The notes beneath the pieces were generated by a model that made no database searches, was not told the DNA's origin, and worked only from the letters and a program-made list of their open reading frames with translations. A stretch of DNA of 64,000 nt from a virus: positions 32,001 to 96,000 of IMG/VR virus record IMGVR_UViG_3300036761_001135. One strand, given 5' to 3'. This document shows positions 18,681 through 44,235 of the stretch, piece after piece. Position numbers and translations under genes: made by a program. The stretch's first letter is position 1, and each line of letters starts with the position of its first letter.

Positions 18681-19427
18681 ATGAGCAAAGCGGTCCCATA
18701 CTCAAAACTCAAGAAGATGCGCTGCCATAGAGAAGTCTATGAAAGACTGTGCGCTGGTTATCCCTTCCCAGAGGTGGCTAGGTTTATTCAAGAGGACGAA
18801 GGCGAGTACCTAGACGTAGGTCGCCGATCCCTCATTGAAATATTGCGCGACTATTCCGAACGCGAAATCGTCGGTGTAGATCTGATCGCACCACGCTTGC
18901 CGCATTTGATCGTGAAGGCACAAAAGGAATTCAGTGACCGATTGGAGGATCTCCGTCGCCTGGAGCGAGCCTACGAGGCGTTGTTGTACAGATTCGATAT
19001 GTCCCATGGTGCGGAGCGGCGCAACGGCAGGGTGAACGCGGACGTAGACCGGCAGGCCAAGGTCTTGATGGACTATGTGTCCAAGATGCACGACATCAAG
19101 ATGGATTTGGGGCTCACGGGGTCGCGTGATCTTGGCACGTTGACGGTGAGTGCAGAGCGTCTGGCAGAGATTCGGGACAAGTACGGCGAGGGTGCGGCGC
19201 GTGCCTTTGGAGATCCGGTCTCACGAGCCAAAGTTCTTGGTCTGTTGAAGCGTGTGATGCGCATTTCGGAAGACTCTGGCATCGACGATGCGGACGTTGA
19301 AGAGGCGAACCTGGGTTCGCGTGACGATCCCGAACTTTATGAGGACGCCATAGAGGCCGAATATTGTGAGGCGACTACCCCAAAATCGACTAGCGAGAGT
19401 GCCGAACAAGATTCGGAAGACAGATGA
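18681..19427 (+). CDS. putative terminase small subunit
   Basis: helical protein overlapping the terL start (ATGA); TTGACA at 18533 upstream; identity inferred from position. Confidence 0.6.
   Translation: MSKAVPYSKLKKMRCHREVYERLCAGYPFPEVARFIQEDEGEYLDVGRRSLIEILRDYSEREIVGVDLIAPRLPHLIVKAQKEFSDRLEDLRRLERAYEALLYRFDMSHGAERRNGRVNADVDRQAKVLMDYVSKMHDIKMDLGLTGSRDLGTLTVSAERLAEIRDKYGEGAARAFGDPVSRAKVLGLLKRVMRISEDSGIDDADVEEANLGSRDDPELYEDAIEAEYCEATTPKSTSESAEQDSEDR
19303..19322. promoter_or_regulatory. palindrome copy 4 (intragenic)
   Basis: AGGCGAACCTGGGTTCGCGT. Confidence 0.8.
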
Positions 19428-22400
19428 TCGTAACAGGCAACAATGGTCGTCGCAGAAGCATTAGGACGACCAGCGAGGACGTGTTGTCGTTCGAGGATGG
19501 GTACGCCCTATGCACACCAGAGGAGCGCGCCTTAGTCCATGCTTTGTTGAGCGATGACCACCCAAACGATGCGGCGAAGCTCAGTTTGGAGTTGAACGAT
19601 TCGCTCTATCAGCGGCCATTGGTGCCGATCCAGCAGTTCATCGAAGATCCTTATTACCTTGGGGACTCCATGATGACTCTGTATCCGGCGTTAAAGCAGG
19701 ATATTATTGACCTTTTTGCGGCTCCATACAGGGAAGTCGTGCTCACGGGCTCCATCGGCGCGGGCAAGAATTTTTTGGCATCTGCGGCGATTTGCCGAAT
19801 TTTGTACGAGCTGTCCTGCCTGAAGAACCCACAGATGACGTTTGGGATGTCTCCTGGTACAGAGATGGTGATCATGCTGATCTCGAAGAACCTCGTCTTA
19901 GCCCGCGAGGTGATGAAGACCAGCATCGACGACAAGGTGAAGCTCAGCCCGTACTTTATGCAGCACTTCACCCCCAAGTTCTCGACCGACTACACGCTGT
20001 TTCCCAACAACATCCGCATGACCATCGGAAGCTATGGGGCAGAGCGTGCCTTGGGAGCGAATATTTTTAGCTGCATGCTGGACGAATGTCTCAGTGGTTC
20101 AGCATGGTTGCAAATAAAAATAAATATTGATTTTTGCGCTGGTTTGTGCGATACAATCGGCATGTCCGTTGGTGATTTGTGGGCAATGGGGCCTTCGGAT
20201 CGTGACGGGTTGCTGGTTGAAGCGCTGGACCATGTGACGGGTCGGCAGACGTGGACGCCGTTTCGGATGCGGCTATCCACGGTGCAACCGTTGGTACGGA
20301 TTGAAGCCGAGGCGAACCCAGGTTCGTGTCGAGCCATCGAGCCTTCCCTTGAACATCCTGTATTGGTGCGGCGCGGCGACTGGCTAGTTTATGTCCCGGC
20401 GATTGAGATCAGCGTCGGGGATGAAGTGGCTTGGAGGCGCGACGATGGCGAAAAAGGGCGAGACACTGAGCGAGGAGATGAAGGCACGTCTATCGGAGGC
20501 GGCGAGCCAGCGGACTGGCGAACTCAATCCATTCTGGGGGAAGACGCACAGCGAGGAGATTCGAGCTTTGTTTGCGGAGAACGCGCGGAAGCAGTGGACG
20601 GGGACGCACCAAAGCGAGGAGACAAAGGCGAAGAGATCGGCATCTTTGAAGGGGCGCGTCATGTCTGCGGAGACGCGGGCAAAGATGGCAGCTTCGGCAA
20701 AGGCACGTTGTACGCCGGAGTGGCGTGCGAAGAAGTCGGCAGAGATGCAGGAACGTGTTGCAGCAGGGCTGGGACCGACGCCACCAATTCAACCTGCCGG
20801 GCCAGATCATCCGTTGAGTGGGAAGCCGAAGACGGAACAGCATCGACAGGCGTTGAGCGCGGCGAGGCTAGGGTTGCCGGGCCATGCGCACACCGAGGAG
20901 TCGCGGGACAAGATTTCGGCGGGGAACGTGCAGGCGATCAAAGATCGGGTGCGGTCATACCGCTACCATGTGTCATCGCCGGATGGCGGGGTGGTTCCAT
21001 GCCGGACGGAGAACGAAGGTCGTTTGGCGCTCCACCTATGTGCGGAGAAGAATGTAACAGCGGTCGTTGGCGAAGATCATATGACGTGGGTGCCATACAG
21101 CATAAACGGACAAAATCGGTTGACAGTGGGAGACTTTCTTGTGACGAGGGACGACGGGGTGCAGGTTTTGGTGGAAGGAAAAGACCCAACGTCCATGTAC
21201 AACCAGCGTACAATGGCGCGCATAGAGGCGCTGTGGAAGTGGAGTCAGGAGAACAGGGTTCTGTTTATTCTTGCGATCAATGGGAAGCCATTCCCAAGCG
21301 TATGGACAGGCCCATTTGTGGACAAATTTCTCATGGACCATCTGTTTTATCAACGACAACGTGTAATCAGGAGGAGGGTCAACTCTGTTGTAATTTCTCC
21401 TTGCGGAACGATTGTGCCGTGCAAAACGGAGATGGAACGGGCGCTGGCGAGATGTTTGTGTATGGAACCTGGAGTTGCCAGTGTGGTTGGAACGGATCGG
21501 ACAGGGTCGATTCCGTACACCACGAGCGGACGAGTGCATCATGTGGAGCCAGGTTTCATGGTGACGCGGTCGGACGGGGTCATTGTCGTTGTGGAGGTGG
21601 AGACGGCATCTGGTCTGTATCGAGAGAAAGACAGGGCGCGGTTGGAGGCATTGTGGGCGTGGTGCCAGGAGCACAAGACGCCGTTTGTGTTGGCTATCAA
21701 CGAAAAGGGGTTCCCGAGCGTATGGACGGGGCCGTTTGTGACGGAAGAGTTCATGGAGAGCGTGCGGCAACGTCGCGTGCGCTTTCGCACCATGCAGACG
21801 GTCGATACCTTGGAGGTTGCCGTGCCGAGTGTTTGCGAGTTGACGACCTGCCTACAGAGTACCGACTCGTTCGCGTGATCTCGACGCGCCTGTTGCCGGC
21901 CGAGCAGACCTACAGCATCGAGACGGACTGCAAGACGTTTGTGGCTGACGGATGCGTGGTCCACAACACCAACTTCCCGCCCAAGAGAAGTGCTCAGCAG
22001 ATTAACCAGACGTTTGGCAAGAAGCTGACGGCGGCCAACTTTGACATCGTGGAGAAGGTGTACCGATCCATGCTGCGGCGCATCAAGTCGCGCTTCCAGA
22101 TCGCTGGCGGCGACTTTCCGGGCATGGTCATCATGGTGTCTTCGGCGGCGACCTTGGACAGCTTCACAGAGCGCAAGTTGAGGGACGCGCGTCGAGACCC
22201 AACTGTGTTCGTTCGAGATCACACGGCGTGGACATCGAAGCCCAGGGATCATTTTTGTGGTAAATGGTTCTACGTGCTGTGTTCAAAATCCAGCCTTCGG
22301 TCTCGTATTCTCGAAGAGGGCGAGTACAACGAGATCACGCAGGAGTTTTTGCAGGAAAACAATGCGTGGATGATCGAAGTGCCGATTGAGTATAGGGAGG

Positions 22401-24649
22401 ACTTCGAGTCCAACCTTGAGGACTCCTTGCGAGACATCGCGGGCGTGTCCACGCAGGCCATCTCGGCTTTCTTCCAGAGGGTGGATGCCATCGACGCCTG
22501 CATAGTGGATCGTCCGCATCCATTCTCCAGCGAGGTCTGGGTGGCTGGGTCGCCGGCGACGTTCACTTGGGATACGCTATGTCGGAAGATCGAGCGGAGA
22601 CTGCCGGGTGGATTTGTAGAAGCCGCATGGGCACCGAAGGAATCTCCAAGCCATCCTCGTTGGATTCATATTGATACTTCCATCAGTGGGGACTGCGTGA
22701 CGGCGGATACGCTGGTGGCAACCCCGGCTGGGAACGTTCGCATTGATTCCATCGTTGCGGGAACTCCTGTGTATAGTCTGGGTGCAGACGGAAAGTTCAC
22801 GGTTGCCACTGCGACGAATCCTGGTCTGAAACGGCGGGAGTCGCCGTTGGTACGTGTCGTGACAGATGGGGGATCGATTCGGTGTACGCCCGATCACAAG
22901 TTCATGTTGCGTGATGGAACATATTGCGAGGCCAGGCTTTTGCGGGATGGAGATTCGTTGATGCCACTGTACAGGCGTTGTTCAGCTAAGCATCCTGGAC
23001 GTCGCGGGGGTGGAGGGTACGAGGAAATTTATCAGCCTGCGTCAGAGCGGTATGCGGCAGCTCATCGTGCGGTGGCGGAATATAAGATAGGTAGATTGCT
23101 AACTGAAGACGAGTGCGTTCACCATGTGGGAACCGAGAATCCAGACAATAAGTTAGACAACCGGCCAGAGAATCTGGAGGTGATGGCGAAGCGGGACCAC
23201 TGGCGTTTACACCAGACGCTGATTGTCGCCTACAACAAAAGTGAGCGGCATCGTGCCTGGGCTCGGGAGTGGGGGCTATGGTCTTGCACGCATCCGACGC
23301 CTGCCATGGTGGAGGCGCGTCGTCGGAATGGGAGTGCGCGGTGCCGATTGATCAATGCTGGGGAATCGAACCCATCCAAGCTGGAGAAAAATAGGAAGCG
23401 ATTTGGGGACATGGTGCGGGAGCGGCATGCCAATGGTTTGTGTACGGAGAACTACAAGAATTTTAAAAGACCTGAAGTACGTGAGAAAACTCGTGCGGCG
23501 GTGTCGATTTCCAGTCGAAATCGCCAATGGAGCGATGAGAGCCGACGCAAGTTATCCATTCGCCGACAGGAATACTTGGCCAGGGTTGCCTCGGGGGAAA
23601 TCGAACAGAAGCCGGTTAGCGCGGAGACACGGGCTAAGATGTCTGCGTCGCGTCGTGGCAAGACATGGACAGATCAGGCTAGAACGAATCATATGGCTTC
23701 CTTGAAGCAACAGGAGTGGACAGAAGAGAGCCGGGCTAAGATAGCAGACGCCAATAGAAACCGCGTGTGGAGTGAGGAGAGCCGTCAGAAATGTGCAGAG
23801 GCACAACGGAGACGGCATGAGAAGAAGCAGTCACAGCGGGAGATTAAGAATCACAAGGTTTTGCGGGTGGAGGATGCGGGCCATGAGGATGTGTATTGCC
23901 TGACGGTGGACGGTGAGCACAACTTCGTGGTGGTGTTTGGCGAGGATCGATTTTCGTCTGGGGTTGTGATCCACAACAGCACAGGATTCGTGATGGGGCG
24001 GATAGAAAGATGGGTAGAGGTAGTGCGCCGTGACGGGGACGGCCATGCCTATACGGACACCGCGCCTTATTACGTCATCGAGGTGCTTCTGTGCATTCGG
24101 CCTCCGACCGGCGATCAAATCTACATGCCGGATTTGAGAAGGCTGGTTTACGAATTGCAGGCGCATGGTTTTCCTATCCATGGGTTTTCGTCAGATTCAT
24201 TCCAAGCCGTGGAAATGCACCAACAGATTCGGCGGCACGGAATCCATACCGAGCTGATTTCGATGGACCGCATCATAGATCCCTATGAGGAGTTGAAGTC
24301 GGCAATTTATGAAAAAAGGATTGAGTATTACGGGTATACTCCATTGCTTCAAGAACTAAGATCGCTTGAGTATGATCGTGTAAAAGGAAAAATAGACCAT
24401 CCTCGTCATGCCAGTAAGGACGTTGCCGATGCATTGGCTGGCGTGGTCTGGGGCCTTCGCCAACAGGCCGCTCGCTTGCCGTGGGCTGCGGATGCTGATA
24501 CACCAATAAGAGCGGTCGGTCATGAGCATGGCTGGGTGAGCGACATGATCCCAGCGGAGGACGTGGATCTCGAAGATGTGAGGTTAACTCGCAGGACGGG
24601 TGCCGCCGCATTAGATATCATGCTCCCATTTTTCATAGGAGATGACTGA
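19424..24649 (+). CDS. terL: terminase large subunit with two inteins (mature ~686 aa)
   Basis: Walker A GSIGAGK, Walker B CMLDE, nuclease HIDTSISGD, KIDHP..SKDVADALAG; upstream of portal. Confidence 0.92.
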   Translation: MIVTGNNGRRRSIRTTSEDVLSFEDGYALCTPEERALVHALLSDDHPNDAAKLSLELNDSLYQRPLVPIQQFIEDPYYLGDSMMTLYPALKQDIIDLFAAPYREVVLTGSIGAGKNFLASAAICRILYELSCLKNPQMTFGMSPGTEMVIMLISKNLVLAREVMKTSIDDKVKLSPYFMQHFTPKFSTDYTLFPNNIRMTIGSYGAERALGANIFSCMLDECLSGSAWLQIKINIDFCAGLCDTIGMSVGDLWAMGPSDRDGLLVEALDHVTGRQTWTPFRMRLSTVQPLVRIEAEANPGSCRAIEPSLEHPVLVRRGDWLVYVPAIEISVGDEVAWRRDDGEKGRDTERGDEGTSIGGGEPADWRTQSILGEDAQRGDSSFVCGERAEAVDGDAPKRGDKGEEIGIFEGARHVCGDAGKDGSFGKGTLYAGVACEEVGRDAGTCCSRAGTDATNSTCRARSSVEWEAEDGTASTGVERGEARVAGPCAHRGVAGQDFGGERAGDQRSGAVIPLPCVIAGWRGGSMPDGERRSFGAPPMCGEECNSGRWRRSYDVGAIQHKRTKSVDSGRLSCDEGRRGAGFGGRKRPNVHVQPAYNGAHRGAVEVESGEQGSVYSCDQWEAIPKRMDRPICGQISHGPSVLSTTTCNQEEGQLCCNFSLRNDCAVQNGDGTGAGEMFVYGTWSCQCGWNGSDRVDSVHHERTSASCGARFHGDAVGRGHCRCGGGDGIWSVSRERQGAVGGIVGVVPGAQDAVCVGYQRKGVPERMDGAVCDGRVHGERAATSRALSHHADGRYLGGCRAECLRVDDLPTEYRLVRVISTRLLPAEQTYSIETDCKTFVADGCVVHNTNFPPKRSAQQINQTFGKKLTAANFDIVEKVYRSMLRRIKSRFQIAGGDFPGMVIMVSSAATLDSFTERKLRDARRDPTVFVRDHTAWTSKPRDHFCGKWFYVLCSKSSLRSRILEEGEYNEITQEFLQENNAWMIEVPIEYREDFESNLEDSLRDIAGVSTQAISAFFQRVDAIDACIVDRPHPFSSEVWVAGSPATFTWDTLCRKIERRLPGGFVEAAWAPKESPSHPRWIHIDTSISGDCVTADTLVATPAGNVRIDSIVAGTPVYSLGADGKFTVATATNPGLKRRESPLVRVVTDGGSIRCTPDHKFMLRDGTYCEARLLRDGDSLMPLYRRCSAKHPGRRGGGGYEEIYQPASERYAAAHRAVAEYKIGRLLTEDECVHHVGTENPDNKLDNRPENLEVMAKRDHWRLHQTLIVAYNKSERHRAWAREWGLWSCTHPTPAMVEARRRNGSARCRLINAGESNPSKLEKNRKRFGDMVRERHANGLCTENYKNFKRPEVREKTRAAVSISSRNRQWSDESRRKLSIRRQEYLARVASGEIEQKPVSAETRAKMSASRRGKTWTDQARTNHMASLKQQEWTEESRAKIADANRNRVWSEESRQKCAEAQRRRHEKKQSQREIKNHKVLRVEDAGHEDVYCLTVDGEHNFVVVFGEDRFSSGVVIHNSTGFVMGRIERWVEVVRRDGDGHAYTDTAPYYVIEVLLCIRPPTGDQIYMPDLRRLVYELQAHGFPIHGFSSDSFQAVEMHQQIRRHGIHTELISMDRIIDPYEELKSAIYEKRIEYYGYTPLLQELRSLEYDRVKGKIDHPRHASKDVADALAGVVWGLRQQAARLPWAADADTPIRAVGHEHGWVSDMIPAEDVDLEDVRLTRRTGAAALDIMLPFFIGDD
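20310..20329. promoter_or_regulatory. palindrome copy 5 (inside intein 1)
   Basis: AGGCGAACCCAGGTTCGTGT. Confidence 0.78.
20445..21878 (+). CDS. endonuclease nested in the +1 frame of intein 1 (NUMOD3-like repeats plus two TnsA-like PD-(D/E)xK domains)
   Basis: own GGAGG RBS; HSEE, SEETKAK, SAETRAKM, HTEESRDKIS repeats; GDFLV..VEGK; duplicated FPSVWTGPFV. Confidence 0.82.
   Translation: MAKKGETLSEEMKARLSEAASQRTGELNPFWGKTHSEEIRALFAENARKQWTGTHQSEETKAKRSASLKGRVMSAETRAKMAASAKARCTPEWRAKKSAEMQERVAAGLGPTPPIQPAGPDHPLSGKPKTEQHRQALSAARLGLPGHAHTEESRDKISAGNVQAIKDRVRSYRYHVSSPDGGVVPCRTENEGRLALHLCAEKNVTAVVGEDHMTWVPYSINGQNRLTVGDFLVTRDDGVQVLVEGKDPTSMYNQRTMARIEALWKWSQENRVLFILAINGKPFPSVWTGPFVDKFLMDHLFYQRQRVIRRRVNSVVISPCGTIVPCKTEMERALARCLCMEPGVASVVGTDRTGSIPYTTSGRVHHVEPGFMVTRSDGVIVVVEVETASGLYREKDRARLEALWAWCQEHKTPFVLAINEKGFPSVWTGPFVTEEFMESVRQRRVRFRTMQTVDTLEVAVPSVCELTTCLQSTDSFA
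22694..23977 (+). mobile_element. intein 2 in TerL (428 aa) with in-frame HNH and NUMOD3-like repeats
   Basis: GD|CVTADT..CTPDHKF..HRAVAE..VHH..NKLDNRPENL..VYCLTVDGEHNF..IHN|S. Confidence 0.92.
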
Positions 24650-24650
24650 A

Positions 24651-26369
24651 ATGGGCTGGACGGACACTGTCAAAAAGTTCTTCAGCCGTGACACGACTGG
24701 GAAGGTGTCCGAGCTGGCGAGGGGATCGTCTGGCGAGAACATCATGCCGCAGATGGGGCCAGGCGCTCCAAACTCTGGCATGGGCGGGGCGTACCAGCAG
24801 CTTTCCACCATGCTCTCTGTCGATGCCGATCTCATGCTTCGGTATTCCGACTATGAAAACATGGACGATTACCCGGAAATCAGCGCGGCGTTGGACATCT
24901 ATGCCGACGACGCGACGATCACGGATGCCGTGCATGGGCGGGTGATTTGGGCCACATCGAAAGACAAGATCGTCCGGGACATCATTAACGACCTGCTCCA
25001 TCGGCGCATTCGAATCGAAGAGGACATTTGGGTTGCGATTCGGACGATGGGAAAATACGGAAACATTTTCTGTGAAGTGATCGTGAACGAGAAGGGGGTG
25101 TTGGGCCTAAATTGGCTGCCACCTCCTACCATGCGTCGCATTATCGACGGTCGCGGAAACTTGGTTGGGTTTGTCCAGGATCCTTCGGGGATGTTTGCGT
25201 TCAACATTGCGACGCGTGATGACCTAGAAAAATTGCGTGTGAAACGCGATGGATCTAGCGCGGTCTTTTTCTATCCTTGGGAGGTTGTGCATTGGAGGCT
25301 TCGAGGGAAGCAGATGCGCGCCCTGTATGGCCACTCACTATTGGACTCGGCGAGGTGGATTTGGAAGCGCTTGATCATGCTGGAGGACTCCAGTCTGGTC
25401 TGCAAGCTCACCAAGTCGCCGTCGAGGTTTGCCTTCTACGTTGACACCGGGGAGATGCCGCCGCGAGAGGCGCGGGCCATGGTCGATGAGGTACGGCGTC
25501 GCTATAAGAAGAAGCGGATCGTCGATCCGTCCACAGGAAAACTAGACTTTAGAATAAATCCCATAGCACAGGACGAAGACATCTTTATCCCGACGCGGGC
25601 TGGAAAAGAGGCTTCTCGCGTTGAGGTGCTTTCCGGGCCTGACTACGACGACACCAATGTGCTTGGGTATTTTTTGAAGAAGTTGTACGCGGCGATCCGT
25701 ATTCCACCGCAGTATCTCGGCGGGACAGAGACGACAAATCGTGCTGCTCTTACTCAGGAAGACGTGCAATTCGCGCGCTTGGAATTGCGCATACAGCACG
25801 AGTTTGTGAGCGGTTTATCGCAGGTGGTGCGCGTGCATCTAGCGGCGCTCAACATCGACCCTGATTCTGTGCAGTGGGATCTGCGTATGCCGGCACCGAG
25901 CAGCATTTTCGAGATGCAGCAGATCGAGGTGTGGAACGCGCGAGCTGCATTGGCTGCGGCATTGCGAGACTTCTTCACGATGCCGTGGATTGTTGCGAAC
26001 ATCTTCCACATGTCCGAGGAAGACGCGCTGTTTGCGACCGAGGCCAAGAAGAATGAGGACGAGGCGACTGCAATGGCTCAGGCGCAGGTACAGGCTGAAA
26101 TCATGCAGAAGTTCCCAGAGCTAGGCCCGATGGGTGCCATGGGTGCCATGGGAGTGCCGCCCGAGGGAGAGCAGGGGCAGGCTGGGGCGTATGAGGACGT
26201 GCGGAAGGAGATCCGGCGTGTGTTGGCCGAGAACAGCGGAAGCAACAACGAGGTTTTGCGGCTTTTGAATCGTATTGAGCCTGCTTTGAATCGGGTTGAG
26301 CGGAAAGTGCTCAGCTCAAATCGAGCGGAGAATGCGCGGGGCCAAAACCGGGTCATGATTGCGAGGTGA
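24651..26369 (+). CDS. portal protein (T4 gp20-like)
   Basis: YPEISAALDIYADD, EDSSLV..PSRFAFYVDTG, DEDIFIPTRAG, KLYAAIRIP. Confidence 0.92.
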   Translation: MGWTDTVKKFFSRDTTGKVSELARGSSGENIMPQMGPGAPNSGMGGAYQQLSTMLSVDADLMLRYSDYENMDDYPEISAALDIYADDATITDAVHGRVIWATSKDKIVRDIINDLLHRRIRIEEDIWVAIRTMGKYGNIFCEVIVNEKGVLGLNWLPPPTMRRIIDGRGNLVGFVQDPSGMFAFNIATRDDLEKLRVKRDGSSAVFFYPWEVVHWRLRGKQMRALYGHSLLDSARWIWKRLIMLEDSSLVCKLTKSPSRFAFYVDTGEMPPREARAMVDEVRRRYKKKRIVDPSTGKLDFRINPIAQDEDIFIPTRAGKEASRVEVLSGPDYDDTNVLGYFLKKLYAAIRIPPQYLGGTETTNRAALTQEDVQFARLELRIQHEFVSGLSQVVRVHLAALNIDPDSVQWDLRMPAPSSIFEMQQIEVWNARAALAAALRDFFTMPWIVANIFHMSEEDALFATEAKKNEDEATAMAQAQVQAEIMQKFPELGPMGAMGAMGVPPEGEQGQAGAYEDVRKEIRRVLAENSGSNNEVLRLLNRIEPALNRVERKVLSSNRAENARGQNRVMIAR

Positions 26370-31155: not shown

Positions 31156-32766
31156 ATGCAAGCTCGAAACATCGTGGAAGAAGACGGCAAGCGGACCGTG
31201 TTCGACGAGTCCTACGGCAAGGTGTGCGAGGCGCGTTGGGCGAAGATTTTGCAGCCCATGAACGAGCGCGATCCAATCAACAGCCACTACGTGCGGCGCT
31301 GCACGGCGATCATCATGGAGAACGAGATGGACCACATCAAGTCTCTCCATGAGGACACCCTCAGCACCAACGCAGGCGCGTTCACGAAGTACGTGTTCCC
31401 GGTTCTTCGCCGGGTGTTCCCGAACCTGATCGCCAACCAACTCGTCTCGGTGCAGCCGATGACCGCTCCCGTGGGCGGAATCTTCTACTACGAGAAGAAG
31501 TACGACGACCGCAAGGGCACCAAGATCCCGCAGTACGGCATCACCAACGCTCCGTACAACATGGCCTATGACGGCCAGTTGGCGGCGGGCGACAACATCA
31601 ACCAGAACTTCGCCCGCATGTACTCCTCGGAGTACGTGGACTACGACGTCATCTGCACGCAAGCGACCGCCGTGGCCTCTCTTTCGAACGTGGGAGCCAA
31701 CTGCCGCCTGCCCGAGTGGAAGCCGATGCGCGCCCCGGGCGTGGACGGACAGCGCACGTTCTACACCAAGCTCTACTACCGCGTGCTCAACCACGCGGGC
31801 ACACTGCCCATCGACATCGTGGCCACCCTCGACCCGACCGGCCTGACCAGCAACCTCGTTGACCAGTACGGGGCCACCGTGGGCACGGTTACCGTGGGAA
31901 CCGGAGCCTGGACCCTCAACGCCAAGGACGAGACCGGCGTAGCCTCGACCTTCACACCAAGCACCGTGATCTACGCGCAGTATTTCGTGAACTTCGAGCA
32001 AGCTGGCTACACCAGCGGTTCTGAGATCCCGAGCATCAGCTTGGACATCGCTCTTCACACCGTGAAGGCCGAGAGCCGCAAGCTGAAGGCTCGCTGGAGC
32101 GTCGAGGCAGTGGACGACATGCGCGCTCTGCATGGGATGGACGCCGAGACCGAACTGGTCGGAACCTTCGCCAACGAGGTCATGCTGGAGACGGACCGCG
32201 AGATCGTGGACGCCCTCGTGACCGGCGCCAAGTTCGCCGCGACCTACACCTACTCGTACTCGGCCGGTTCCCAGGGCGAGATCGAGACCATCCGCAACCT
32301 GCTGACCAAGATCAGCGCCGTGGCGGCCTCCATCCACACCGCGTCCGGTCGCGCTCCGGCCAACTTCATCGTGGTGTCTCCGAGCATCGGCGCATTGCTC
32401 GACCAGCTCTCGACCCATGGTGACTTCGCCAGCATCGAGCAGAACGTGCAGAGCCCGACCTATGGGCCGATCACGTCCGACTTCGGCATCGCTCGTATCG
32501 GCACCCTGCTCAAGCGCTTCGCGGTCTACCAAGACCCCTACATGACCGCCAACAAGGTGCTCATAGGACTCAAGGGCAACAACTTCCTGGATGCCGGGTT
32601 CGTGTACGCACCGTACATCCCACTCCAGGTCACCCCGACCTTCATGGATCCAAACGACTTCACGTTCCGAAAGGGCGTCAGAACCCGATTTGCCTCCAAG
32701 ATGCTACGCCCGGAATACTACGGCGTCATCACCTGCTCCGGCCTCCCCGCTGTGACCGTCGTCTGA
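31156..32766 (+). CDS. major capsid protein (T4 gp23-like)
   Basis: VQPMTAPVG, AESRKLKARWSVEA..HGMDAETEL, YAPYIPL, DPNDF..TRF; C-ending codon bias. Confidence 0.95.
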   Translation: MQARNIVEEDGKRTVFDESYGKVCEARWAKILQPMNERDPINSHYVRRCTAIIMENEMDHIKSLHEDTLSTNAGAFTKYVFPVLRRVFPNLIANQLVSVQPMTAPVGGIFYYEKKYDDRKGTKIPQYGITNAPYNMAYDGQLAAGDNINQNFARMYSSEYVDYDVICTQATAVASLSNVGANCRLPEWKPMRAPGVDGQRTFYTKLYYRVLNHAGTLPIDIVATLDPTGLTSNLVDQYGATVGTVTVGTGAWTLNAKDETGVASTFTPSTVIYAQYFVNFEQAGYTSGSEIPSISLDIALHTVKAESRKLKARWSVEAVDDMRALHGMDAETELVGTFANEVMLETDREIVDALVTGAKFAATYTYSYSAGSQGEIETIRNLLTKISAVAASIHTASGRAPANFIVVSPSIGALLDQLSTHGDFASIEQNVQSPTYGPITSDFGIARIGTLLKRFAVYQDPYMTANKVLIGLKGNNFLDAGFVYAPYIPLQVTPTFMDPNDFTFRKGVRTRFASKMLRPEYYGVITCSGLPAVTVV

Positions 32767-32883: not shown

Positions 32884-34548
32884 ATGGAACATACGCTTGT
32901 AAAACGGGATGGACAGTCTGGAGGCGTGCGTCTGGTGGTTCTGGATCTGGAGCAGCCCGAGGTGGTGGAGCGACTTGCCAACGGGATTATGGTGGATCCT
33001 GGATGTGTCTATGTGTTCTCGGATGAGTGGGCAGATCGGCGGGTGGCATGTGAAGCGTTCGTGCGAGCGCGAGCGGGGCGGTTTGAGCGTCGCTTGGGTG
33101 CGCGTCAGTGTGTGGTGCGCGAGGTGGAGAAGATGGAGGCGCGTGTCTTCCTGGACGCATTTCATATCCAGGGGGCGAATCATCTTGCCCTTGTCGTGTT
33201 CGGCCTATTCGTTGAGGCGGAGTTGGTCGGGGTGTTGTCGCTGGGGCGGCACCATCGACAGGGCCAGGAGCGGCGGGTCGTGTTGGATCGGTTGTGCTTC
33301 CGAGATGGGGTACAGGTGATCGGTGGGTCATCGCGGATGCTGGATCGGGCTCGTGCCTGGGCGGAGGCGCATGGCTATGACGAGATTTTAAGCTTTAGTG
33401 ATAACCGCTTGACGCCGGGCGTGGTGTACGACCGCCTTGGGTTCACGGTAGATGCCAGTTGCCGTCCCGATTATTTCTATGTGCAAGATGGGCGGCGCAT
33501 ATCGAAGCAGAGCCAGCGGAAGCGGGCTAGCGGGTGCCCGGATGGGATGACGGAGCGATCCTGGGCACAGGCGCGTGGGTTGGTGCGTTGTTACGATGCG
33601 GGGAAGGTGAGGTGGTTACTTCCGTTGCGACCGTCATCGCATCCGACACAACAGCAGGACAATTCGGAGCAGGCTGCGCGGTCCAATGCGGCGGGCATTA
33701 GTGGAAGTGACATCCACATGCGAGGGTACTTTCATTCGAAAAAGCTTGGAGGCGATGTGTATTTTGGATCGTCTTACGAGTTGCGGTGTCTGTTTGAGTT
33801 GGATGGCGATCCAGACGTGCAAACCTTCCGACGTTGTGAGGCATTTCAGACGCCAAAGGGACGGTGGCGTGCTCCAGATTTGTGGATCGAGCGACGAGAT
33901 GGTCGCAAGGAGATTTGGGAGGTTAAGCCGTCTGTCATGGTGGATATGCCACGAGCGCGCTTACAGATTGCTGATACGGCGTTGTATGCGGTGAGCATTG
34001 GCGTTTGTTTTCGCGTGTGGACGGAACGGGACAGCGCGTTGGGAGAGGATGGCCGGATCATCGGATGGGCGCGTGAGTACCTGTCGCGTCAGCAGGGGGA
34101 TACTACTTACGAGGAGCGGAACCAGCGGACGCGAAAGGCGATTCGAGAGCGCCACTATGCGAAGGAGCAGGCTGCCTCGGTGGTGGTGCATTGTGATTAC
34201 TGCCAGGCCGATCACACGGTGCTGCCGCGCACTTACGCCCGGAACGTGGCCAAGCACGATGGGGCATATGTGTGCGAGGCCATGGCGGGGCATATTGGGG
34301 GAAGCAAGCCAAAGGACCACTTGAAGGTGACGAACCCATACGCGGAGGAAGGAAAGAAGAAATGTAGTATGTGTGAGCAGATACTTTCGATGGATAAATT
34401 TCAAAAACGGAAGGCATCATGGGATGGTCTTAGTGCGGCATGCAAGCCGTGCTTGCGTGCGTATGACGCGGTTAGGTATCAGAAGAGAACGCACGCGAAC
34501 CTGGGTTCGCCTGTAGAGGAGATCGCATGCGATTTGCATGGAGCATGA
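32884..34548 (+). CDS. free-standing putative homing endonuclease (Hef/Mom-like domain, TnsA-like nuclease, Zn fingers)
   Basis: FHIQG..LDRLC..GGSSRML..SFSD..YDRLGF..YDAG; GYFHSKK..SSYEL..PDLW..EVKP; CxxC pairs. Confidence 0.7.
   Translation: MEHTLVKRDGQSGGVRLVVLDLEQPEVVERLANGIMVDPGCVYVFSDEWADRRVACEAFVRARAGRFERRLGARQCVVREVEKMEARVFLDAFHIQGANHLALVVFGLFVEAELVGVLSLGRHHRQGQERRVVLDRLCFRDGVQVIGGSSRMLDRARAWAEAHGYDEILSFSDNRLTPGVVYDRLGFTVDASCRPDYFYVQDGRRISKQSQRKRASGCPDGMTERSWAQARGLVRCYDAGKVRWLLPLRPSSHPTQQQDNSEQAARSNAAGISGSDIHMRGYFHSKKLGGDVYFGSSYELRCLFELDGDPDVQTFRRCEAFQTPKGRWRAPDLWIERRDGRKEIWEVKPSVMVDMPRARLQIADTALYAVSIGVCFRVWTERDSALGEDGRIIGWAREYLSRQQGDTTYEERNQRTRKAIRERHYAKEQAASVVVHCDYCQADHTVLPRTYARNVAKHDGAYVCEAMAGHIGGSKPKDHLKVTNPYAEEGKKKCSMCEQILSMDKFQKRKASWDGLSAACKPCLRAYDAVRYQKRTHANLGSPVEEIACDLHGA
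34493..34512. promoter_or_regulatory. palindrome copy 7
   Basis: ACGCGAACCTGGGTTCGCCT. Confidence 0.8.
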
Positions 34549-41061: not shown

Positions 41062-44000
41062 ATGGAATTCACCTATCCGGGCGTCTATATCAAAGAGATT
41101 CCGAGCGGTCCGGGGCCGATCACTGGCGTTACGACGTCCAACATGGGGCTCATTGGGTTTACCACCCGAGGGCCTGTCGATCAGCCTGTCCTGGTAACAA
41201 GCTTCCAGGAGTTCACAACGAAGTTTGGCACTTTCACGGAGAAGGGTCTTGCGCCGACCATGGCGTATGCCTTCTTCCAGAACAGTGGCCAGCGCATGTA
41301 CATGGTGCGCGTATGCCATGACGACGCTGCGAAGTCCCTGTGGGATTACGAGATCGATCAGACCGGCGAGATTCTTGGAATCACGGCGGTCCCGAGCGGA
41401 CTGTACGATCTCCAACTCGACCACATGCCTGTCAAGGAGACCGTCCCTGGCAGCGTGACGATCACCTTCCCGAACGCGTCGGTCCCTGGAAACACCAACG
41501 TGTTTCGGGATGACGGAGCCGGATCTTTCGTTTCGGTTGGCGCGGGATCTGGTGGCTCTGGGTCCATCGACTACGTGACCGGCGAGGTGTCGATCCAGTT
41601 GGCGGTTCCCGGTGAGTTCACCGGAGCGCCGAACTCGATCACGGCGGCTTACACGTATCGCGTCTTGCGCTTCGAGATGAAGTGGCCGGGCGTGGTCGGC
41701 GACAACTTCCGCGTGCAACTCCAGAACGGCAGCGACGACTACATGGTCTCCGCACAGGCCAGGTGGACGCGGCATACCGCAGTTGTGCAGGAAGACCTAA
41801 ACGGCGATCCGCTGAATCGATCCTGGTCCACGTTGGAGACATTCGCGGACGTGGTGCTCGACGATCCGACCAGCAAGAACTACATCGTGCTCGTCATGAA
41901 CGATGCGATCAACGGGTCGCAGTACGTTCGCGTCACGGACTACGGCAATCAGATCAATCCGCCGGAGCTGGCAGGCGATGCCATCACGGGCGAGGATCTC
42001 TCGTCGATGCAGCAGCACAGCGATGGATCTGGCACCGTGCCGGCCGCTTACGACGGTGTTTGGAAGGGCTGGAAGTACATCCTCGCCAACGAGGTATCTC
42101 CGACCACGTTGAAGGCGGAGTTCCAATTCGTCGAGGGCAATCCGTCGAGCCCTGGAGGCCCGCTGGCGCTGTCCATCGGAATTGGCGCGAGCCCGGCTTC
42201 GGCGGTTCCGATCCTCACCTGGCAGCAGGCGGCGGTGGATGCGAACAGCGTCCAAATCACCTGCACGCTGACGGGAGCGGGAGCCACCACGTTGACCGAC
42301 GACGGTGCTTCGCACATCATGTCCGGCGCGACCCAGGTCGGCACGGTGAACTACACGACCGGAGCCATCGTTCTCGACATCACGCCCATGGCGGACACCT
42401 TCGTGGCGAACAGCCCGCTGCTTCTGGATTGCGTCTATGCGCAGCCTGTGACGGTGGGAGACGACGGACAGGGCAATGCGTACATCGTCGATCCGGCGTT
42501 GCTGACCCCGCCGCTCGTTGGCGTCCCCGGGAAGTTCCAACTCAACGCCTCTGGCACGAACACCATCGACTATGACTCGGGCGAGCTGACTCTCACCTGG
42601 AAGATTTCCGGGAATCCCGGTGCTGGTCCTTGCGGCGTGGCGACCTCGCCCACGGCAGCGGCCAAGGTCGGCGCAGTTGGCCCCTACAACCTGAACACGG
42701 GCAACTCCTTCTCGGTCAAGGTGAACGGTGCTGGCGCGGTGGCGGTGGCCTTCACGGGCACGAAGGCGACTCGGGTTGGCGGTGCGGTGTTCCCGATTGT
42801 CGCCACGACGGGCGGCGAGAACTGCACCATCGTGATCGACGGAAACTCCTACGTAGTCACGGCGGGCGCGGGACTCACGCTGGCCCTGGAGATCGCCAAC
42901 CTAATCAACGGCGTGATCTCCGGCGGTAGCGCGGTGGAGACCGGCGGCGGCACGGGCGTGGATATCAAGTCCGACAGCGCGGGCACGGGATCGTCGGTGC
43001 AGATCATCGCGGGGTCTCCGAACCTGGCGACGCTCATCGGGCATACGGCGGGCACCACGGCTGGCACGGGCAACGTGGCCAACATCGACGCGGTGTTGAA
43101 CACAGAGGTGAAGGCGGCGGTGGAGCTGGCGACCACGGCGGACGTGACGGCCAACATCGACGGGTCGTTCACGATCACGTCTCCGACCACAGGCGTTCTT
43201 TCCGAGCTGGACTTCACGGTGGGCCTGACGGCGTTGGGCATCACGGTAGAGACCATCAACGGAACGGACGGCTTTGGTGGCGGCCAGACGGCGGACTACT
43301 ACACCGTTCCACAGAGCAGCATCTTGGGCCTGCTTGATGGCGGATCGGACGGCAGCGCCACGGATTCGGACGACATCGTGAGCCCGCTACTCGCGGCGGA
43401 CATGCGAGCCCTGTACAGCTTTGGCCAGGTGGATGAGTTGATGCAGCTTGTGGCTGCGGATTTCCAGACGGATACCTACGTCATCGACACCTTGCTCACC
43501 TACGCCGAGTTGATGAAGGACAAGTTCGTCATCGGGTCGGTGCCATTTGGCATGGAGTACCAGACGGCTGTGACCTGGAAGCGGTTCACCTTGAATCGCT
43601 ACTCCAGCTTTGGAGCGATCTACTACCCCCACGTCAAGATCCGCGACCCGCTCACGGGCACCAACGTAGACGTGCCACCGGGCGGCCACGTTGCGGGCGT
43701 CTATGCTCGCACCGATGCGGCGAAGAACGTGGGCAAGGCTCCGGCGGGCATCGAGGACGGGGCGCTGGCATGGGCCACGGGCCTGGAGTACACGTTGACT
43801 CCTGCGCAGGTGGGCGTGTTGAACGAGAACAAGATCAACTGCCTTGTGCAGTGGCCGCAGACGGGACGTGTGGTTTGGGGCGCGCGGTCACTGGATGCTT
43901 CCGGCGGTGAGTGGCCGTACCTCCAGATGCGGCGCTTGTTCATGTTCGTGGAGAAGAGCGTCTTCAAATCGACACACGTTCATGTCTTCAAGAACAACGG

Positions 44001-44235
44001 GCCACAACTTTGGAACGACATCAGTACGCAGTTGGTGACGTTCTTGGCTGGCCTCCAGCAGGGCGGCTACTTCGCGGGGAATACCCCGGAGGAATCGTTC
44101 TTTGTGGTGTGCAATCGCACCAACAACCCGCAGAACACGGTCGATCAGGGCATCGTGTACTGCGACGTTGGCATCGCAGCGAACAAGCCGGCGGAATTCT
44201 TGGTCTTCAGGTTCTCACAAAAAAGTTTGAAGTAA
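41062..44235 (+). CDS. tail sheath protein
   Basis: YPGVYIKE, FFQNSG, YYPH, PPGGHVAG, KAPAG, VWGARSL, RRL, KPAEF. Confidence 0.95.
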   Translation: MEFTYPGVYIKEIPSGPGPITGVTTSNMGLIGFTTRGPVDQPVLVTSFQEFTTKFGTFTEKGLAPTMAYAFFQNSGQRMYMVRVCHDDAAKSLWDYEIDQTGEILGITAVPSGLYDLQLDHMPVKETVPGSVTITFPNASVPGNTNVFRDDGAGSFVSVGAGSGGSGSIDYVTGEVSIQLAVPGEFTGAPNSITAAYTYRVLRFEMKWPGVVGDNFRVQLQNGSDDYMVSAQARWTRHTAVVQEDLNGDPLNRSWSTLETFADVVLDDPTSKNYIVLVMNDAINGSQYVRVTDYGNQINPPELAGDAITGEDLSSMQQHSDGSGTVPAAYDGVWKGWKYILANEVSPTTLKAEFQFVEGNPSSPGGPLALSIGIGASPASAVPILTWQQAAVDANSVQITCTLTGAGATTLTDDGASHIMSGATQVGTVNYTTGAIVLDITPMADTFVANSPLLLDCVYAQPVTVGDDGQGNAYIVDPALLTPPLVGVPGKFQLNASGTNTIDYDSGELTLTWKISGNPGAGPCGVATSPTAAAKVGAVGPYNLNTGNSFSVKVNGAGAVAVAFTGTKATRVGGAVFPIVATTGGENCTIVIDGNSYVVTAGAGLTLALEIANLINGVISGGSAVETGGGTGVDIKSDSAGTGSSVQIIAGSPNLATLIGHTAGTTAGTGNVANIDAVLNTEVKAAVELATTADVTANIDGSFTITSPTTGVLSELDFTVGLTALGITVETINGTDGFGGGQTADYYTVPQSSILGLLDGGSDGSATDSDDIVSPLLAADMRALYSFGQVDELMQLVAADFQTDTYVIDTLLTYAELMKDKFVIGSVPFGMEYQTAVTWKRFTLNRYSSFGAIYYPHVKIRDPLTGTNVDVPPGGHVAGVYARTDAAKNVGKAPAGIEDGALAWATGLEYTLTPAQVGVLNENKINCLVQWPQTGRVVWGARSLDASGGEWPYLQMRRLFMFVEKSVFKSTHVHVFKNNGPQLWNDISTQLVTFLAGLQQGGYFAGNTPEESFFVVCNRTNNPQNTVDQGIVYCDVGIAANKPAEFLVFRFSQKSLK

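Follow-up and report, generated by a model that had tools for sequence, protein, structure and literature searches.

The stretch of DNA analysed here, referred to below as the window, comprises 64,000 nucleotides (nt) of a virus, namely positions 32,001 to 96,000 of the IMG/VR record IMGVR_UViG_3300036761_001135. It carries a large terminase (TerL) gene that is split by two inteins. The first of them, intein 1, has its two ends in the TerL frame, and most of the DNA between these ends also codes, in the +1 frame of the same strand, for a nested protein with NUMOD3 repeats and two TnsA-like nuclease domains. The TerL boundaries come from the listing of open reading frames (ORFs) and their translation, and the features on which the analysis rests are the following:

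19424..24649, plus strand: TerL ORF, 1741 amino acids (aa), with an extein of 686 aa split by two inteins
20087..21967, plus strand: intein 1, 627 aa (TerL residues 222-848), inserted after the Walker-B LDE
20087..20446, plus strand: N-terminal Hint lobe of intein 1 (intein residues 1-120), conserved in the intein alignment
20432..20436, plus strand: Shine-Dalgarno sequence GGAGG, 8 nt before the nested ATG
20445..21878, plus strand: nested +1-frame gene, 477 aa
20445..20945, plus strand: NUMOD3-repeat DNA-binding region (nested residues ~1-167; Pfam PF07460, 6.4e-15)
20447..21826, plus strand: TerL-frame linker (intein residues 121-580)
20946..21353, plus strand: nuclease domain 1 (nested residues 168-303), with an intact PD-(D/E)xK set E191, D230, E244 and K246
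21369..21776, plus strand: nuclease domain 2 (nested residues 309-444), degenerate (Asp to Gly, Lys to Glu)
21827..21967, plus strand: C-terminal Hint lobe (intein residues 581-627, ending in VVHN)
22694..23977, plus strand: intein 2, 428 aa (TerL residues 1091-1518), with an in-frame HNH and NUMOD3 endonuclease

An original prediction, made from the letters alone, had described intein 1 as having normal splicing blocks at both ends, an unstructured centre in the TerL frame, and a coherent NUMOD3-plus-nuclease protein with its own GGAGG ribosome-binding site in the +1 frame, both frames being free of stops over 1434 nt. All of this agrees with the results given below. The boundaries of the intein are exact (MLDE/CLSG ... 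VVHN/TNFPPK, in the wider context ANIFSCMLDE/CLSGSAW and FVADGCVVHN/TNFPPKRS, where slashes mark the junctions). Cys1, at 20087 and right after MLDE, is invariant in eight aligned inteins, as are H90 and P91 of block B (LEHP, within SLEHPVLV) and the terminal H626 and N627, which are followed by Thr+1 (VVHN/TNF).

The two ends of intein 1 are predicted to form a canonical Hint fold. In an AlphaFold model of intein 1 as read in the TerL frame (627 aa), for which the eight aligned sequences were used, the pLDDT score (predicted local distance difference test) is about 90 for residues 1-120 (range 85-95) and 581-627, and about 30 for residues 121-580, which have no secondary structure. The best matches to this model among 48,161 chains of the Protein Data Bank (PDB), compared with VIA-align, are the inteins NrdJ-1, NpuDnaB and VidaL (Z 19.5, 19.2 and 18.8), with a root-mean-square deviation of about 2 Å over 135-143 residues (2.0 over 143 for NrdJ-1); almost all of the 30 chains at Z of at least 8 are inteins or other Hint-superfamily domains. 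The linker is predicted to be disordered, and its composition is rich in Gly, Arg, Ala, Glu and Asp with few hydrophobic residues.

Given that the nested gene starts with its ATG at residue 120 of the intein and stops at residue 598, it occupies the canonical endonuclease insertion point of the intein and overlaps the C-terminal Hint lobe by its last ~17 codons. This overlap accounts for the conserved tail of the nested proteins. The Shine-Dalgarno sequence and the ATG of the nested gene are conserved across lineages, and the relatives that were checked have a similar G-rich stretch before the nested start (TGGAGG in L001, L091, L180 and L220, GGGGGG in L006, AGAGGA in L209; L numbers designate loci of related contigs).

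The nested protein combines a DNA-binding region with a nuclease. Its N-terminal NUMOD3 region matches the I-TevI DNA-binding domain (1i3j) in a search of PDB sequences, and this was the sole match, with nothing found for the nuclease domain. In Pfam, the protein matches Tn7_TnsA-like_N (PF08722) with 29.7 bits against a gathering cut-off of 26.5, in addition to NUMOD3. The top Foldseek matches to the nuclease domain are TnsA structures (1t0f and 1f1z; E ~1e-5, probability 1.0), and the weaker ones include the PD-(D/E)xK nucleases Hjc, EndoMS/NucS and Bax1. The residues E191, D230, E244 and K246 are invariant in the first copies of the domain (CRTxxE ... V[AG]DF ... VEGK) and lost in the extra copies. 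To judge from its sequence, nuclease domain 2 is probably a pseudo-nuclease partner domain. No second copy of the nuclease domain was found elsewhere in the 64-kilobase (kb) window.

Two other assignments of the nuclease were considered and rejected. The EDxHD or Vsr-like family (I-Bth0305I) does not fit, given that the conserved stretch VGED[QKH]M lacks a conserved H-D and the active site is of the E/D/ExK type; neither 3R3P nor Vsr is among the matches listed by the PDB sequence search or among the first 50 Foldseek matches, although such an absence does not amount to exclusion. A Tn7-type transposon does not fit either, since the nested protein lacks the TnsA C-terminal domain according to Pfam. 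The neighbours examined, with smaller ORFs not scanned, are phage genes (helicase, terminase, portal, sheath and others), and no Tn7 gene is among them.

Evidence for dual coding comes from the stops that are missing from the TerL frame. Synonymous codons were permuted within the nested ORF, preserving the protein and its own codon usage. In 20,000 such shuffles, 16.8 TerL-frame stops were expected and never fewer than 6 were found, against none in the real sequence (0/20,000 shuffles reach zero). In the third frame of the nested ORF, 17 stops were observed against 18.9 expected. A TerL-frame stop can arise only where a nested codon ending in T precedes AA, AG or GA, so that the purge is visible in codon choice: none of the 116 nested codons in this position in the window ends in T, compared with 22.7% of the other codons, and in L091 the count is 0/269. 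Intein 2, whose endonuclease is in frame, provides an internal contrast, with 14 and 24 stops in the off-frames of its 428 codons.

The two frames also differ in the selection acting on their amino acids. The ratio of non-synonymous to synonymous substitution rates (dN/dS), obtained by the Nei-Gojobori method from codon alignments of four lineages and indicative only, is 0.25-0.43 in the nested frame; for the same nucleotides read in the TerL frame it is 1.07-1.34, which is indistinguishable from the 1.0-1.3 of the third, non-coding frame. The nested frame is under purifying selection. Since the TerL frame matches the non-coding frame, the linker amino-acid sequence is free of purifying selection, and selection acts against its stops alone. 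Codon shuffling and dN/dS in both frames had been named in the original prediction as ways to check its proposal that stops in the host frame are purged because TerL must be read through; both tests, together with the conservation of the arrangement, support this proposal.

The same +1 arrangement with an open TerL frame is present in about 20 related contigs, representing at least 12 distinct lineages. Relatives were gathered through homologues of the nested protein, through homologues of its nuclease domain and through a scan of TerL relatives, which added 57 more loci; the locus search with the nested protein gave mostly NUMOD3-only matches, with L091 as the sole true relative. The site (DE/...HN/TNF), the +1 offset and the open TerL frame are shared by L001, L006, L091/L010, L171, L172, L173, L180, L189, L191, L203/204/206, L209, L212, L220, L224, L226 and L229. 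Their nested proteins are 40-67% identical to that of the window, their guanine-plus-cytosine (GC) content ranges from 38% to 69%, and they come from different samples and assemblers. No TerL-frame stop is observed in any relative, whereas the shuffle test, which was valid for 14 nested loci, gave expected numbers ranging from ~4.6-4.8 (L006, L189) to 42.9 (L091); the rows of L006 and L191 were left out of the automated run, in which the wrong ORF had been picked, and L006 was checked by hand. Even the locus with 38% GC (L209) has no TerL-frame stop against 24.6 expected, with 33 in its third frame. The longest nested ORF, that of L091 (3602-6019, equal to L010 611-3028), extends over 2.4 kb; its product of 805 aa has a long array of NUMOD3 repeats and three nuclease domains in tandem, only the first of which is intact. 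A close relative, P0006, has one such domain, which indicates that the domain number changes quickly. The gene callers of the source databases split or miss these TerL genes.

Several observations indicate that the element is mobile. Most of the TerL relatives have no intein at this site (DE/TNF), 17 have the nested form and 4 have mini-inteins of 180-190 aa. On a quick tree of 228 aa of the C-extein adjoining the insertion site, presence and absence require at least 14 changes, 10 of them forced by well-supported branches, and are about as scattered as shuffled labels. The distribution is patchy and incongruent with the host gene, and the intein-free DE/TNF alleles are potential targets. Moreover, identical C-exteins occur in different states in three sets: the window (nested) and L174 (mini), L001 (nested) and L179 (empty), and L217 (mini) and L215 (empty). 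Such identity of exteins with and without the element points to recent movement.

In the allele L174 (4431-5000 of IMGVR_UViG_3300033520_000069), which is near-isogenic with the window, this site is occupied by a mini-intein of 190 aa. The two have the same N-extein, and 264 of the 270 nt of the N-terminal Hint lobe agree. The intein of L174 retains the nested Shine-Dalgarno sequence, the ATG and ~40 codons of the 3' end, and the 1311 nt between them are missing, in frame for both readings, so that the TerL-frame linker is absent. The retention of these remnants of the nested gene means that the L174 mini-intein is best read as a deletion derivative, or decay product, and not as an ancestral empty target of invasion. 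As L174 lacks most of the nested gene, the linker and the endonuclease are dispensable for TerL.

With respect to origin, the original prediction had proposed that a free-standing endonuclease gene invaded a mini-intein. This scenario is plausible. Distant relatives of the nested protein (E 1e-10 to 1e-4) are proteins of 220-370 aa with a C-terminal TnsA-like_N domain, scoring 37-72 bits against PF08722, and variable N-terminal helix-turn-helix, NUMOD3 or DUF7487 modules. Three of them (P0017, P0034 and P0024), whose context was inspected, are free-standing genes in phage-like contigs, in line with the proposed source of the gene. On the side of the recipient, the scenario finds no ancestor in L174, for the reason given above. 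A further candidate, P0020 (1709 aa, with 12 weak stretches), was set aside as what looks like a spurious repeat-protein match. In a phage GenBank collection, a DNA search with the TerL region gave no match, and protein matches were limited to NUMOD3 stretches in unrelated homing endonucleases.

Taken together, these results make it highly probable that intein 1 is a bipartite selfish element from which two independent products are obtained from the same 1.4 kb. Ribosomes translating TerL would read through frame 0 and produce a precursor in which the two Hint lobes are joined by a disordered spacer of ~460 aa, the sequence of which would be irrelevant as long as it contains no stop. The Hint domain would then splice itself out, joining MLDE to TNFPPK and restoring the Walker-B region; we infer splicing because the role of TerL is essential and the stops are purged. 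Translation started at the internal GGAGG-N8-ATG would proceed in the +1 frame and yield a free-standing homing endonuclease, composed of NUMOD3 repeats, one TnsA-like PD-(D/E)xK domain predicted to be active and one degenerate copy. During co-infection this endonuclease may cut intein-free TerL alleles, and repair would copy in the intein together with the gene.

A broader proposal can be made more tentatively, with a little less than even confidence. The proteins that combine NUMOD3 with a TnsA-like domain might constitute a previously unrecognised homing endonuclease family, which in these phages overprinted the linker of one TerL Walker-B intein and in this way became its obligate partner. 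The intein would accept any disordered insert that is free of stops, at lengths of 200 to 800 aa or more, and repeated duplication of the nuclease's catalytic domain would give inactive copies, as many as three, that are possibly built-in dimer partners.

Other explanations would place the nuclease in frame or remove the linker before translation. An assembly or sequencing artefact, in which two compensating indels mask an ordinary in-frame intein endonuclease, was named in the original prediction as the finding that would overturn it. One assembly alone would be insufficient to exclude such indels, and the endonuclease sits exactly at the position expected for an in-frame one; however, the same +1 offset recurs in some 20 contigs of such different identity, GC content and provenance, and an artefact would leave the TerL frame not specifically purged of stops. 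The recurrence in many independent assemblies rules out assembly indels, and an artefact deserves next to no credence. Programmed ribosomal frameshifting, with a +1 shift near 20445 and a return near 21878, would yield a conventional intein with an in-frame endonuclease, and such a product is physically possible as both frames are open on the same strand. An open frame 0 between the shift sites would be needless in that case, yet it has been purged of 17-43 expected stops; the conserved Shine-Dalgarno sequence and ATG mark independent initiation, the L174 allele keeps frame 0 without the region, and no slippery site was seen around the nested start, where no systematic scan was run. We regard frameshifting as very improbable. 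Removal at the RNA level is slightly more remote still. NUMOD3 endonucleases are typical of phage group I introns, and the presence of NUMOD3 in the nested protein could suggest that a group I or group II intron, or else a bypassed segment, contains the gene, with a frame-0 linker that is never translated. Nevertheless, Rfam gave no intron at E<=1 in 19000-25000, and with a spliced RNA there would be no point in selecting against stops in frame 0. It is this lack of need for an open frame 0 that tells against both frameshifting and RNA splicing.

A different possibility is that the nested gene is a decaying relic, so that this phage has ceased to express the endonuclease or has it in an inactive form, and that the intein persists, de facto as a mini-intein with a long junk linker. 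Decay of a fixed element is expected from the homing cycle, the deleted allele L174 exists, nuclease domain 2 is degenerate, and the N-terminal part of the window's intein contains an odd patch (20090..20165, described below). On the other hand, the nested ORF runs unbroken for 477 codons with the dN/dS of a constrained protein (0.25-0.43), the catalytic E/D/ExK residues and the Shine-Dalgarno sequence with its ATG are conserved across lineages, and the identical exteins with and without the element are suggestive of recent movement. Relic status is disfavoured for the nested gene, and we consider it unlikely, though less firmly so in this individual phage.

The preferred interpretation, a bipartite element with two products, also has several points to its disadvantage. 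Values of dN/dS are biased in overlapping frames, and dS is near saturation in the distant pairs; the tree of C-exteins may be distorted by co-conversion next to the insertion site. The Pfam Intein_splicing model does not match intein 1, so that the Hint assignment comes from motifs and predicted structure. Finally, the odd patch could impair splicing in this particular phage:

20090..20165, plus strand: AT-rich patch at the start of intein 1, 75 nt in place of the 54 nt of relatives

This patch is unique to the window. Both L174 and L001 have the 54 nt, with almost identical flanks. It lies in the first ~25 codons and adds 7 aa to the first loop of the intein, and it is not required for the nested arrangement. 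A sigma-70 promoter scan of 19300-22300 found no site and thus lends the patch no support as a promoter.

The surroundings of the element are those of a myovirus-like phage, with a T4-type portal gene 3' of TerL and a structural module that includes prohead protease and tail sheath genes. The original prediction had spoken of in-frame endonucleases in inteins 2 and 3. This holds for intein 2, with its HNH and NUMOD3 endonuclease; the TerL of the window contains two inteins, and no third was found. In relatives, TerL carries up to four (L001 3783-10634, L091 1387-7926, L172 3485-7783), at the P-loop, at Walker B, at SGD/ and at DHPRH/, with HNH, LAGLIDADG or no endonucleases, and the portal genes of L001 and L091 also have an intein. 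The phage group is thus an intein hotspot.

Three further observations concern the window as a whole. The palindrome CGAACC-NN-GGTTCG is present in 12 copies, against 0.02 expected, one of which lies inside intein 1:

1536, 9014, 16000, 19306, 20313, 26691, 34496, 39854, 48247, 49204, 59142 and 61456 (window positions): palindrome CGAACC-NN-GGTTCG
20313..20326, plus strand: palindrome copy inside intein 1, 132 nt upstream of the nested ATG

Several copies are located 26-120 nt upstream of ORF starts, that of TerL among them. The palindrome is limited to a close clade (the window, L001, L174, L175, L178, L180 and L183) and absent from more distant relatives; it may be a clade-specific regulatory or operator site. 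The tail sheath ORF (41062-44235, 1057 aa) holds a same-strand ORF of 297 aa in another frame (41682-42575), for which Pfam gave no match and which probably arose by chance in GC-rich DNA. Behind the capsid region, a 554-aa ORF (32884-34548) matches the Mom family in Pfam; a hidden Markov model of the nested nuclease domain does not match it at E<=10, which indicates that it is not a close paralogue.

The arrangement in intein 1 is an unusually clean natural case of dual coding over a long stretch (1.4 kb, and 2.4 kb in a relative), in which one frame is under selection for its protein and the other is kept free of stops and nothing more. The lack of T-ending codons before AA, AG or GA is a sharp signature of this. 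Within one phage group, the whole life cycle of the element is represented by empty, full and deleted alleles, which support the view of intein evolution in which the splicing domain comes first and the endonuclease invades later. Of relevance to intein engineering, a Hint domain can apparently accommodate 460 to 800 aa of disordered linker, and the arrangement matters for phage annotation, since such TerL genes are split or missed by gene callers.

Out-of-frame endonucleases in inteins have been described before. Gosselin, Arsenault & Gogarten (bioRxiv 10.1101/2025.01.02.630785) reported inteins of actinobacteriophages, with TerL among the hosts, that contain antisense LAGLIDADG, antisense VSR-like (EDxHD) or frame-3 endonuclease VII-like enzymes. 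As in intein 1, the lobes are in the extein frame, the gene of a free-standing-type endonuclease overprints the linker, the in-frame linker is predicted to be unstructured, and invasion by a free-standing endonuclease gene is proposed as the origin. Intein 1, in contrast, has a same-strand gene in the +1 frame for a NUMOD3 and TnsA-like PD-(D/E)xK protein, and it occurs in myovirus-like phages from the environment whose portal is of the T4 type; that study makes no mention of TnsA or NUMOD. The intein of the cyanobacterial dnaX gene, a bacterial chromosomal gene, carries an out-of-frame LAGLIDADG endonuclease in a +2 ORF (Phillips, DeSimone & Gogarten, bioRxiv 10.64898/2026.09.14.751524); according to the citation given there, the out-of-frame endonuclease of the Synechocystis dnaX intein was first noted by Gorbalenya 1998. 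The two systems are alike in that the overlapping ORF is under purifying selection and dN/dS of the extein-frame linker is raised, as well as in their sporadic distribution with coexisting full, mini and empty alleles. They differ in the host, here a phage TerL, in the TnsA-like enzyme, in the tandem degenerate nuclease domains and in the extent of the dual coding, which reaches 2.4 kb in relatives.

In fractured genes (Dassa et al. 2009, PMC2677866), the intein is split and a free-standing endonuclease gene, GIY-YIG or Vsr-like, stands between its halves. These genes share with intein 1 a free-standing endonuclease gene at the endonuclease site of the intein, phage terminase among the hosts, and an endonuclease ORF whose 3' end overlaps the downstream intein part. 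In fractured genes the host frame is broken in two and splicing occurs in trans, whereas all nested loci examined keep the TerL frame unbroken, so that intein 1 is contiguous and not fractured; moreover, the nested nuclease has a canonical E/D/ExK site instead of the Vsr-type D/H/D site. In the ShiLan-type insertion, an HNH endonuclease lying out of frame is hidden inside a phage methylase gene (Arsenault et al. 2025, PMC11855218). There, too, an insertion without a host-frame stop encodes an endonuclease in another frame, but it has no splicing domain and stays in the host protein, whereas a complete Hint domain flanks the insert in TerL.

The nuclease itself has the PD-(D/E)xK fold of TnsA, the endonuclease subunit of the Tn7 transposase (PDB 1f1z and 1t0f), and matches the same Pfam family, PF08722. 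Unlike TnsA, the nested protein has no TnsA C-terminal domain and carries at its N-terminus a NUMOD3 array typical of homing endonucleases such as I-TevI. We found no report of a TnsA-like or NUMOD3 enzyme as an out-of-frame intein endonuclease in the literature on such inteins, and none of the 12 top-ranked results of a literature search combined 'TnsA-like' with inteins or homing endonucleases. The TnsA-like PD-(D/E)xK nuclease with NUMOD3 joins the short list of out-of-frame intein endonuclease types: the layout is rare and has already been described, and the nuclease family in that role appears to be new.

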